Source of the DNA: a virus
Taxonomy: Duplodnaviria; Heunggongvirae; Uroviricota; Caudoviricetes
DNA length: 4,548 nucleotides
Strand: one strand, 5' to 3'
Virus record (IMG/VR): IMGVR_UViG_2671180296_000009
Shown: positions 1,323 through 4,548 of the stretch, piece after piece
Layout: each line of letters begins with the position of its first letter
Position numbering within the stretch: the stretch's first letter is position 1
Notes under the pieces: model-generated
What the model saw: the letters and a program-made list of their open reading frames with translations, nothing else
Told to the model about the DNA's origin: nothing
Database searches by the model: none
Translations under genes and position numbers: made by a program

Positions 1323-1348
1323 TTAGCCAGGTAACACAGTGTTATGAC

Positions 1349-1377
1349 AGCCCGCCGGTTCAGGCGGGCTTTTTTGT
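1349..1377 (+). terminator. Rho-independent terminator candidate downstream of lom
   Basis: Perfect 8-bp stem AGCCCGCC (1349-1356) / GGCGGGCT (1363-1370) with 6-nt loop GGTTCA, followed by TTTTT (1371-1375). It ends about 10 nt before the stf start. Confidence 0.65.
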
Positions 1378-1386
1378 GGGGTGAAT

Positions 1387-3477
1387 ATGACAGTAAAGAT
1401 TTCAGGTGTCCTGAAGGACGGAGCGGGTGAGCCTGTCGTAAACTGTGCGATTGAATTGCGTGCCAGAAGAACCAGTCCGACAGTTGTGGTTAATATTGTG
1501 GCAACCTGTCTTACGGGAAGTGATGGCGGGTATACTATTAATGCTGAGCCGGGATTTTATGATGTATTTTTGTCCCGCTCAGGGCATCCTCCTGTAAAGG
1601 CGGGGGAAATTTATGTTGCACCGACAGATGAGCCGGATACGCTGAATGCTTTTCTGGATGCACCAAAGGAGGGTGATTTACGCCCTGAGGTAATGAAGCG
1701 TTTTGAGGAAATGGTAAATACCGTTGTTCGCTTGTCTGAGCAGGTGGTCAGTGACAGGGAGAGAGCAGAAACAGCGGCTGATGATGCAATCAATGCAGCA
1801 ACATCTGCGGCGGTTAGTAAGGATGAGGCAGAAGAGCTAAAAAATCAGACACAGCAGAGCGCCGAAGCTGCAGCCGGAAACGCACAGCAGACCGCGCAGG
1901 ATGTGGAGGCAACGGTCACCGCCCGTGATGATGCGGAACGTTTTGCGGGTGAGGCAGAAAACAGCGCACAGACATCAGGCACAGCGCGGGACGAATCAGT
2001 CGATGCCGCCGAACGTGCCCGCCTTTATCATAATGCCGCATCATCAGCTGCAACCAGCGCGGAAAATGCAGCAAATGCTGCACTCGGGCATGAAAATAAC
2101 GCTGCCGAATACGCCCGACAGGCTAAAGACAGCCAGGATGCAGGTGCAGACAATGCGCAGGAAGCGAAACAGTACAGGGATGAGGCGCAGCAGATAGTTG
2201 ATGACCTGAATGCAACAAATGCCAGCACGACAGAAAAAGGTCTGGTGCAACTGTGTAGTGATACGGACAACGACAGCGATGAACTGGCTGCCACGCCAAA
2301 GGCTGTCAAAGCCGTCATGGACGAAACGAAAACAAAAGCGCCACTGGACAGCCCGGCCTTCACCGGCACCCCAACCACCCCAACCCCACCGGATGATGCC
2401 GCCGGTCTGGAAGCAGCGAACGCAGCGTTTGTGCGCAAACTGCTTGCTGCGCTGGTTGGCTCATCGCCGGAAGTTCTGGACACCCTGAACGAGCTGGCAG
2501 CGGCGCTGGGCAATGACCCGAACTTTGCGACCTCAATGATGAATGCGCTGGCAGGCAAACAACCGCTTAATGACGTCTTAACGGCAATCAGCGCACTGAC
2601 GCAACGGGCAGATAATCTTCTGTACTTCAATACAGACGGGAATGCCTCACTGTCTCTGCTGTCAGAGAAGGGCCGCGCATTACTGGCGCATGACACGGCT
2701 GAAGCCATGCGCACGGAGCTTGAGCTGAACGCGGCTGCGACGATGGAACCCCAGAGTGATATCCGTGACCGCACACCGGGCAGGCTGGCCCTGTCCGGGA
2801 TGTATGGGTTTGGACAGGCATTCACCAGAGCCGAAGCTCTGTCATTTAACGGACAGGCTGATTTCGTTATATGGCTGCAGACAGTCACACCGGGGCGTTA
2901 TGCGGTCAGTATTGCGGACTCTTCCACGCTGCTGAAGGGGACCACGAAATTTAACGGTATCATTGATGTGATGTGGTCACCGTCTGATAACGACGAATCA
3001 GACACGGCGCGTAAATTCAAAACGCTGCTGTACTACAACCAGTATTACGAGGATGAGCACAACATACATTGCATGCGTTATCATTACAGTGATAACACCT
3101 GGACCGCAACATCAAACATGATTGTGTATGACGGCAACTCCCTGGCATATCTGATGTCCTCAACCGCCGGTAATGGTCCGTTCTCATATTACCAATACCC
3201 GGCACTTGGCGTGCCGATTATGGCGGTATATCAGGGAGAAAGTTTTGGTGAAAATGCTTCTCTGGGACTCGGTGATACTGTGCCGGGTTCCCGTCTTGGT
3301 CCTCTGGCCATGAGTGCACCGGTTAGTGATACAGGGACATACGCATCCTCACCGCAGGTTGTGATTGGCGGTGCCGGTGAATACAACTTCCCCGGTCGTT
3401 ACACGGCGCTTTCTGGCCTGGGTAACAATTATGGTACTCAGCGTGGCTTTATCGGTCTTTTTGTACGCATTGAGTAA
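1387..3477 (+). CDS. stf: Side tail fibre protein (Stf-like), mosaic: lambda-Stf-like N-terminus, Ala/Glu/Asp-rich shaft, conserved fibre motifs, divergent C-terminal putative receptor-binding domain
   Basis: Open frame 1381-3477. I place the start at ATG 1387 (GGGG at 1378-1381 as a Shine-Dalgarno-like element, 5 nt spacing); GTG 1381 is the alternative used by the ORF track. N-terminus MTVKISGVLKDGAGEPVVNC resembles lambda Stf MAVKISGVLKDG…. The central part carries motifs recurring in P2 gpH / Mu S / lambdoid Stf fibres: ATPKAVK (2287-2307), SPAFTGTPTTPT (2350-2385) and LNELAAALGNDPNFA. The last ~250 aa have no motif I recognise. Confidence 0.88.
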   Translation: MTVKISGVLKDGAGEPVVNCAIELRARRTSPTVVVNIVATCLTGSDGGYTINAEPGFYDVFLSRSGHPPVKAGEIYVAPTDEPDTLNAFLDAPKEGDLRPEVMKRFEEMVNTVVRLSEQVVSDRERAETAADDAINAATSAAVSKDEAEELKNQTQQSAEAAAGNAQQTAQDVEATVTARDDAERFAGEAENSAQTSGTARDESVDAAERARLYHNAASSAATSAENAANAALGHENNAAEYARQAKDSQDAGADNAQEAKQYRDEAQQIVDDLNATNASTTEKGLVQLCSDTDNDSDELAATPKAVKAVMDETKTKAPLDSPAFTGTPTTPTPPDDAAGLEAANAAFVRKLLAALVGSSPEVLDTLNELAAALGNDPNFATSMMNALAGKQPLNDVLTAISALTQRADNLLYFNTDGNASLSLLSEKGRALLAHDTAEAMRTELELNAAATMEPQSDIRDRTPGRLALSGMYGFGQAFTRAEALSFNGQADFVIWLQTVTPGRYAVSIADSSTLLKGTTKFNGIIDVMWSPSDNDESDTARKFKTLLYYNQYYEDEHNIHCMRYHYSDNTWTATSNMIVYDGNSLAYLMSSTAGNGPFSYYQYPALGVPIMAVYQGESFGENASLGLGDTVPGSRLGPLAMSAPVSDTGTYASSPQVVIGGAGEYNFPGRYTALSGLGNNYGTQRGFIGLFVRIE

Positions 3478-3491
3478 TGAGGAAATCAGGC

Positions 3492-4070
3492 ATGAAAATC
3501 AGAGCGGTGAAAGGTATCAGAAACGCACATTATCTTGAAAATGGTGCGGTTGACTGCGAGGTGTTATTTGAAGGTGAAACGGAGTTCGTCCTGTATACCG
3601 CCATACAGGATGATATGGCCCCGACAGGCCAGCATGTCTGGCAGGAGCTGCAAAGCGGGAAATGGGGCGAAATCGCCCCGTTCACCGTCACGCCGGAACT
3701 TATTGCAGCGGCAAAGGATGCCAAAAGGCGGGAAATTGAGGCATGGCGAGACAGTCAGGAAAACGTTGAGTTTATTTTCACGTTTGATGGCCGTCGTTTT
3801 GATGGCGGAAAAACCTCGCAGTCACGCCTTGCCCCCGTGGTTGCAACAGCACAGGCCGGACTGCTTCCGGAGGGTTTTTTCTGGACTGATGCGGATAATA
3901 ACAACGTCGTACTGACCAGGGAGAAACTTATTGCGCTGAACGATGCCATGATGGTGGCCATGGTGACGGAGGGTTTTAAAATCCACGAACGTCAGCGGGA
4001 GATGAAGGAACAACTGAATAATCTGGATGATTTGCGTTCAATCAGGGAAATGGTGATTAGCGATAATTAG
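3492..4070 (+). CDS. Putative tail fibre assembly chaperone (not lambda-Tfa type); function inferred mainly from position
   Basis: Open frame 3477-4070. ATG 3477 overlaps the stf stop (TAATG), but ATG 3492 has the better ribosome-binding site (GAGG at 3479-3482, 9 nt spacing), so I call 3492; 3477 remains possible. Sits immediately 3' of stf, where phages encode the fibre chaperone. It lacks the conserved lambda-Tfa C-terminal block that is present in the downstream remnant. Confidence 0.65.
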   Translation: MKIRAVKGIRNAHYLENGAVDCEVLFEGETEFVLYTAIQDDMAPTGQHVWQELQSGKWGEIAPFTVTPELIAAAKDAKRREIEAWRDSQENVEFIFTFDGRRFDGGKTSQSRLAPVVATAQAGLLPEGFFWTDADNNNVVLTREKLIALNDAMMVAMVTEGFKIHERQREMKEQLNNLDDLRSIREMVISDN

Positions 4071-4126
4071 CGGTCAATTCCGGGCTTTTTGGGCGCGCTT
4101 TCCGCCCAGAATTATACGTCAATTAG

Positions 4127-4375
4127 CCCAGAAAAAATCGCGAAGTTACAATTGGCCCGGCAACACCACTGAGTCATACAGCGAAACTTGATACTGTTCG
4201 TGTAGCCATAATGGAATGCTGCTCCACGCTGAATCTCCCGTTTGTTGATATGCGTGATGTGGTGAACAGCAGTAACAGGCAGCTGTATACAGGGGCTGAC
4301 GATGTTCACCCTAATGATGTCGGTCATGTTTTCGGGGGCTGCAGGCAGCAATGCGGGTGTTGCAGTTTTATGTGA
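4127..4375 (+). other. Short open frame (ATG at 4211, 54 codons) containing an SGNH/GDSL-hydrolase block-V-like motif; possibly the 3' remnant of an esterase gene or a chance ORF
   Basis: Frame-2 translation …[25 protein letters not shown]… contains D-x-x-H-P-N-x-x-G-H (nt 4298-4327), which resembles block V of SGNH hydrolases (consensus about DGxHPNxxGy, with the catalytic Asp and His). No blocks I-III are present and there is no room for them after tfa ends at 4070. Confidence 0.2.
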
Positions 4376-4548
4376 TACAGATAGCCAGTGAGCATATTGC
4401 GCCGCTTCAGGATGCTGCAGATCTGGAAATTGCAACGGAGGAAGAAAACTCGTTGCTGGAAGCCTGGAAGAAGTATCGGGTGTTGCTGAACCGTGTTGAT
4501 ACATCAACTGCACCTGATATTGAGTGGCCTGTAATACCAGAAGTTTAA
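4351..4548 (+). pseudogene. tfa: 3' remnant of a lambda-type tail fibre assembly gene (tfa); only about the last 57-60 codons are Tfa-like, N-terminal part absent
   Basis: Translation from about 4369 ([59 protein letters not shown]) matches the conserved C-terminus of lambda/Rac/Qin Tfa as I recall it (…[53 protein letters not shown]…). Codons before 4369 (MRVLQF) are not Tfa-like, and a stop precedes the ATG at 4351. Confidence 0.7.

Follow-up and report, generated by a model that had tools for sequence, protein, structure and literature searches.

Two stacked gene remnants, of an SGNH hydrolase gene and a lambda-type tfa gene, at the tail end of a lambdoid Escherichia coli prophage

Mosaic joints in lambdoid phages arise by illegitimate recombination, in the modular mode of evolution associated with Hendrix. 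Relaxed homologous recombination with defective prophages has been found to place crossovers within the tail fiber assembly gene tfa, with a third of lambda x Rac recombinants crossing over on the right in the tfa 95% homology region (De Paepe et al., 2014; PMC3945230). The N-terminal domain of Tfa is reported to bind the fiber tip, and its C-terminal domain has been proposed to mediate trimerization (PMC9608196). Truncated tfa copies that comprise the C-terminal block only are represented by K-12 tfaX (b0563), in the DLP12 prophage, and by the partial tfa pseudogenes annotated by PGAP; published work on tfaX deals with a promoter island close by and not with its protein.

The 4,548-nucleotide stretch of DNA analyzed here (IMG/VR virus record IMGVR_UViG_2671180296_000009; hereafter the window) covers the tail end of a lambdoid E. 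coli prophage. The locus at its 3' end is an ordinary, already annotated tfa pseudogene scar, for which K-12 tfaX is the long-standing precedent. The refinements over its description as a recombination scar are an SGNH remnant upstream of the tfa remnant, joints with microhomology, the chimeric nature of the ORF that spans the scar, and natural evidence for a crossover inside the tfa block. The features of the window are as follows.

1-546, plus a shifted frame to 654: 3' end of J
723-1322: lom
1340-4152, + strand: incoming fiber module, made up of stf, the DUF4376 gene and an 82-nt trailer
1387-3477, + strand: stf, side tail fiber gene
3492-4070, + strand: DUF4376 gene
4151-4152, no strand: joint 2, between the stf-DUF4376 module and the SGNH remnant, with a 2-nt overlap AT
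4151-4376, + strand: SGNH/GDSL hydrolase 3' remnant, the last 75-76 of ~456 codons (tblastn, nucleotide identity, PHROG)
4311-4508, + strand: match to Rfam RF02111 'IS009' (cmscan, 138.1 bits against a gathering threshold of 117, E 5e-33)
4351-4548, + strand: chimeric ORF of 65 codons, 7 from the SGNH tail (MRVLQFY) and 58 from tfa
4370-4376, no strand: joint 1, between the SGNH remnant and the tfa remnant, a 7-base microhomology (ATGTGAT)
4372-4548, + strand: lambda-type tfa 3' remnant, codons 136-193 of 193 plus the stop (tblastn, Pfam, PGAP annotation)

Positions 4050-4548 match the genome of E. coli N96 (NZ_CM169999.1) at 100%, and the N96 prophage adjoins ybhB-bioA. Looking beyond the window end, as the first-pass annotation had proposed, reveals ~120 bp followed by opposite-strand genes for a Mn catalase, two ferritin-like proteins and a con-10/KGG stress protein. 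At the other end of the window, the tail tip gene J is frameshifted near 528-531 relative to J of N96: its ORF ends at 546 (…AGHGMSP, then a stop), and the conserved end (VTLTFNVSS…) runs in another frame to 654. This frameshift reflects either a tip protein that lacks its last ~40 residues, in a defective prophage, or a sequencing error. The fiber's partner in this prophage is the DUF4376 protein (PHROG 1141, 'tail fiber protein') rather than a Caudo_TAP chaperone (window 3492-4070, 2701-3474); the DUF4376 product may be a chaperone or a distal fiber subunit. A hairpin at ~4070-4140, just 3' of the DUF4376 gene, folds no better than shuffled sequences (z -1.18). Neither a minus-strand ORF at 4112-4513 (133 aa) nor the frame-1 peptide of 4071-4169 has a Pfam match, and both were taken as spurious.

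The last 177 bases of the window are confirmed as a lambda-type tfa gene's 3' end, by all appearances a dead one. Translation of 4387-4536 gives the conserved C-terminal block of Tfa, within the ORF at 4351-4548, and this ORF matches the Pfam family Caudo_TAP (PF02413) with an E-value of 4.2e-26, over profile positions 76-131 of 131 only. In tblastn searches, residues 136-193 of a full-length 193-aa Tfa from Z1323HEC0475 (L005 4595-5176) match positions 4372-4545 at 95% identity (E 4e-33), and residues 1-135 find nothing better than E 0.4 in the six window frames; Caudo_TAP profile positions 1-75 likewise have no match in any window frame. The first-pass annotation had stated that only the C-terminal block of Tfa is present, with no N-terminal portion in any frame, and these searches bear it out. 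The alignment to full-length tfa genes that it suggested defines the breakpoint, with nucleotide homology beginning at 4370-4373. RefSeq/PGAP annotates the corresponding stretch of N96 (L001 8323-8499, equal to window 4372-4548) as 'tail fiber assembly protein, incomplete, missing N-terminus', and the remnant in strain GB089 also bears a partial-pseudogene annotation. What survives is the C-terminal domain conserved throughout the family, which is met again in lambdoid, P2-like, Mu, P1, APSE and Ralstonia phages and is the sole part of lambda-type Tfa that can be aligned to Mu TfaU (PDB 5YVQ_B; residues 113-175, aligned via the full-length homolog).

Over 167 nt (4382-4548) the remnant is identical to the full-length tfa of Z1323HEC0475. 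The three differences from this closest full-length gene (4372, 4377 and 4381) are all non-synonymous (L>V, M>I and V>I) and all fall no more than 12 nt from the joint; they may represent the original allele, or else changes that arose during repair there. The remnant has no internal stop or frameshift, and it may simply be young, so that neutrality is not demonstrable from its own sequence.

Like tfaX, the remnant lies near a prophage end, downstream of tail-fiber genes, and duplicates a tfa 3' end. The two differ in their upstream joint, which is to an SGNH tail in the window and to unrelated sequence in tfaX, and in their state of preservation: the window copy is whole to its native stop, whereas K-12 tfaX is cut short by a premature stop and remnants of the tfaX type no longer resemble Tfa past ...RVDTS. 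With full-length Tfa (lambda Tfa, TfaD/TfaQ/TfaR) the remnant shares the 95% amino-acid identity to residues 136-193, and with Mu TfaU (PDB 5YVQ) the conserved C-terminal domain alone. Unlike full-length Tfa, it is without the N-terminal 135 residues, a native start codon and adjacency to stf, from which it is separated by the DUF4376 gene and the SGNH remnant.

Immediately upstream, the 226 bases at 4151-4376 form a second remnant, the decayed terminal part of an SGNH/GDSL hydrolase gene, which the first-pass annotation overlooked; the locus thus has two stacked scars. Residues 381-456 of a 456-aa SGNH protein encoded by a Mu-like prophage of STEC719 match this stretch (tblastn, E 2.5e-29), with residues 443-455 matching in a shifted frame. 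A Logan contig (L012) is 85% identical to it at the nucleotide level, and positions 426-498 of 502 of PHROG 9703 match as well. A match to Pfam Lipase_GDSL_2 (PF13472; positions 124-176 of 178, E 3e-6) scores 28.2 bits, below the curated cut-off of 32.9, and the SGNH assignment therefore rests on tblastn and on nucleotide identity to the Logan contig. The remnant keeps the C-terminal DxxH block (DDVHPN), and the N-terminal catalytic Ser block is absent. Relative to its homologs (L003 from STEC719, and P0001/L012), which end in ...GH(V/I)FRGLQ.AMRV.QFM followed by the stop, it has lost 1 nt within 4329-4338 and gained a T in the run at 4366-4369. When the repaired SGNH fragment was searched against proteins, just two came back, the remnant itself and a homolog on a short Logan contig; the latter helped to define the ancestral C-terminus but added no wider context.

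The one-base T insertion brings the ATG at 4351, an internal Met codon of the SGNH gene, into frame with the tfa remnant, and in-frame stops at 4312-4317 bar any earlier start. From its sequence, the 65-codon ORF would be an accident of this slip in the T run. It had been presented as a tfa fragment from ATG 4351, a description that fails for its first seven codons, the ATG included, which are SGNH tail.

An unannotated fragment ~75% identical to part of the SGNH remnant (window 4176-4333) is also present in E. coli SMS-3-5 (L004 6001-6157), and most of the further 694 E. coli genomes with a match have fragments of this type. In SMS-3-5, the one genome from which the context was taken, the fragment lies between an IS1 fragment and sitD, beside sitABCD and the aerobactin genes, and it looks like a phage-derived scrap beside an iron-uptake gene cluster.

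Both joints can be placed to the base. At joint 1 (TTTATGTGATACAGATAGCC), SGNH homology extends through ...TTTATGTGAT to 4376, with both homologs diverging immediately after GTGAT, and tfa homology sets in at A4370, where tfa reads ATCTGATGCAGGTAGCC. In alignments to L003, L012 and L005, the seven shared bases ATGTGAT agree with the SGNH gene at 7/7 positions and with tfa (ATCTGAT) at 6/7, and they contain the SGNH stop codon TGA (4373-4375). A microhomology of seven bases at a gene boundary argues for an illegitimate rather than a homologous joint. The first-pass annotation had proposed that the remnant records a homologous exchange of fiber cassettes: an orphan left by recombination it does seem to be, but with a microhomology joint in place of a homologous breakpoint. 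At joint 2, homology to RM9088 stops at 4152 and SGNH homology begins at 4151. Like other lambdoid mosaic joints, those in the window set module boundaries at gene ends, with 2-7 nt of microhomology; compared with lambdoid mosaicism at large there is no substantive difference, and the locus is one more instance, with two nested remnants. A draft NCBI contig (L011; GCA_018953615.1) begins exactly at window position 4152, as would be expected if the upstream module were a multi-copy repeat at which short-read assemblies break.

Comparison with related prophages points to the course of events that produced this arrangement. In Z1323HEC0475 (L005), the gene order is J-lom-stf-full-length tfa, followed by the downstream genes shared with N96, and from the joint onward the two genomes are 97.3% identical over 3 kb of downstream genes. 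Z1323HEC0475 thus shows the un-replaced state, and the comparison finds the remnant still in its original place, directly upstream of the downstream genes (Mn catalase and those that follow) that in Z1323HEC0475 come after a full-length tfa. The stf-DUF4376 module, together with 82 nt past the DUF4376 stop, also occurs, at 97-98% identity, in further prophages where both its left and its right flank are different. It matches RM9088 to 4152 and 06-00048 to 4042, and in both it stands beside different left-hand genes as the last gene block before host genes.

We consider it about 85% probable that 4372-4548 is a non-functional fragment (58 of 193 codons) of a tfa gene that once ended the tail operon and was truncated in the course of two replacements, and that the 65-codon ORF is accidental. 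In the first step of the proposed scenario, a fiber cassette ending in an SGNH/GDSL gene would have replaced the old fiber genes together with tfa codons 1-135, joining by illegitimate recombination at the 7-base microhomology on the SGNH stop codon. In the second, the stf+DUF4376 module (1340-4152) would have replaced most of the SGNH cassette, leaving the last 75-76 SGNH codons, and the SGNH stub would afterwards have acquired its two frameshifts. Because each incoming cassette carried its own terminal gene, the truncated residents would have been dispensable, kept as stacked 3' remnants. Exact-pattern scans for the SGNH/tfa joint (CAGTTTTATGTGATACAGATAGCC) recovered three contigs in IMG/VR, all of which also have joint 2, and none in metagenomes or GTDB genomes; an intermediate with an intact SGNH gene and this tfa joint was therefore found in none of these collections, and the order of the two replacements is accordingly inferred. 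The prophage of STEC719 provides a mirror case, in which the SGNH gene is intact and the stub after it is a 50-codon ORF, the 3' remnant of a DUF4376 gene (L003 6222-6374; …YQRQREMKEQL…); this reverse order suggests that cassette replacement repeatedly leaves 3' stubs.

The tfa 3' block itself is widespread, occurring in 5004 of 5426 E. coli genomes; the median number of places per genome is 2 and the maximum 8. Strain GB089, along with three more, carries 4071-4371 at 99.7-100% identity, joint 1 included, and the remnant of this type turns into tfaX-type sequence between 4393 and 4404; the right flank of the GB089 group differs, with an alpha/beta hydrolase gene and ompT. This hybrid is a clear natural case of a homologous crossover inside the tfa block that swaps the genes to its right. 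Together with the lambda x Rac crossovers (PMC3945230), with which crossing over within tfa is shared, it lends support to the earlier claim that the conserved Tfa C-terminus is a site of homologous exchange. Direct repeats of the tfa 3' block are found in Z1323HEC0475 (L005 4595-9037) and in K-12 DLP12 (L013 7535-9061), where the tfa/tfaD…tfaX repeats bracket genes for Mn catalase, ferritin-like proteins and the methyltransferase ybcY. Such an arrangement predicts deletion or exchange of the bracketed genes by homologous recombination. The remnant in the window offers ~175 bp at 85-99% identity to the tfa copies of most E. coli genomes, and the one activity that can be demonstrated for it is a passive one: it serves homologous crossovers as a substrate, by which the sequence to its right is reshuffled.

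Other readings of the locus were weighed against this one. That a joint might be an assembly chimera is brought to mind by the repetition of the stf-DUF4376 module within genomes and by the one draft contig that breaks at 4152. Both joints, however, co-occur in five of 5426 complete E. coli genomes, in three IMG/VR contigs and in a draft contig, and their recurrence across genomes and contigs speaks against an assembly artifact; with an identical 4071-4371 stretch and joint present in five independently finished genomes and in the three IMG/VR contigs, the chance of a chimera is negligible. The first-pass annotation had itself raised the cases that 4071-4548 forms a single intact gene from a different family or that a frameshift hides a full-length tfa. 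We found no point in support of either and give them practically no credence: stops interrupt all three forward frames, the upstream part aligns to the C-terminus of an SGNH hydrolase (E 2.5e-29) and not to Tfa, and Tfa residues 1-135 are absent in all six frames. The RF02111 match, with 138.1 bits against a gathering threshold of 117, could mean that the stretch is an IS009 small RNA gene, retained because its RNA has a function. Yet the model overlies the 3' portion of the tfaD/tfa coding sequence, scoring 228 bits inside K-12 tfaD (L013 7857-8055) and 224 bits in the tfa of Z1323HEC0475 (L005 4938-5136). In the window the alignment is good only over about model positions 62-199; the 5' third falls, unmatched, in SGNH sequence with low posterior probability, one helix contains non-standard pairs, and no promoter-like site was found. 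A functional IS009 copy is highly improbable on these grounds, and the match appears to be explained by tfa coding homology.

No evidence favors a protein function for the 65-codon ORF. The suggestion that the fragment, if expressed, might contact fiber proteins is weakened by its accidental SGNH ATG and by the loss of the fiber-binding N-terminal domain. In a stronger form of this idea, the 65-aa product would be a Tfa C-terminal mini-protein that co-oligomerizes with full-length Tfas, whether of its own phage or of co-resident or superinfecting phages, and so modulates or poisons fiber assembly. The ORF is intact, no terminator separates it from the late genes, and the C-terminal domain is the one proposed for Tfa trimerization (PMC9608196). 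Moreover, some PHROG families consist mostly of this block (phrog_2341, 88 positions; phrog_3792, 78 positions) and tfaX is annotated as a CDS in K-12. We nevertheless regard expression of such a mini-protein as very unlikely: its start is an internal codon of another gene, put in frame by a slip mutation, and lies within a small hairpin; the only Shine-Dalgarno-like element is a weak one (AGG at 4343-4345, 5 nt upstream of ATG 4351); the domain that binds the fiber is missing; sister remnants are visibly decaying; and the resident fiber has DUF4376, not Tfa, as its partner. Promoter and terminator scans around the remnant yielded nothing above shuffled expectation and, since no terminator lies between it and the late operon, the remnant is probably transcribed by late read-through in lytic growth. 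Orphan tfa blocks are common in phage genomes too, as seen in the PHROG families and in induced phages. Among the latter, phage 2G7b (NC_049954.1) has a second, unannotated partial tfa block at 23690-23797. That some orphan Tfa C-terminal ORFs (the present one, tfaX and those of the phrog_2341/3792 type) are kept for prophage exclusion, or that the block is selected as a homology 'landing pad', seems to us very unlikely. If exclusion were true, a helical oligomerization domain would co-assemble with the Tfa of other phages and disturb fiber maturation; if the landing pad were true, the prophage would capture new fiber or accessory-gene cassettes.

For the reading preferred here, of a non-functional tfa fragment beneath two cassette replacements, the import beyond correct annotation is small: annotators should not call the 65-codon ORF a gene, and IS009 matches in E. 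coli prophages mark tfa genes or their remnants, not necessarily an sRNA. What the locus provides are base-level joints for two probable successive replacements of a tail-fiber cassette, and as such it illustrates the established mosaicism of lambdoid phages.
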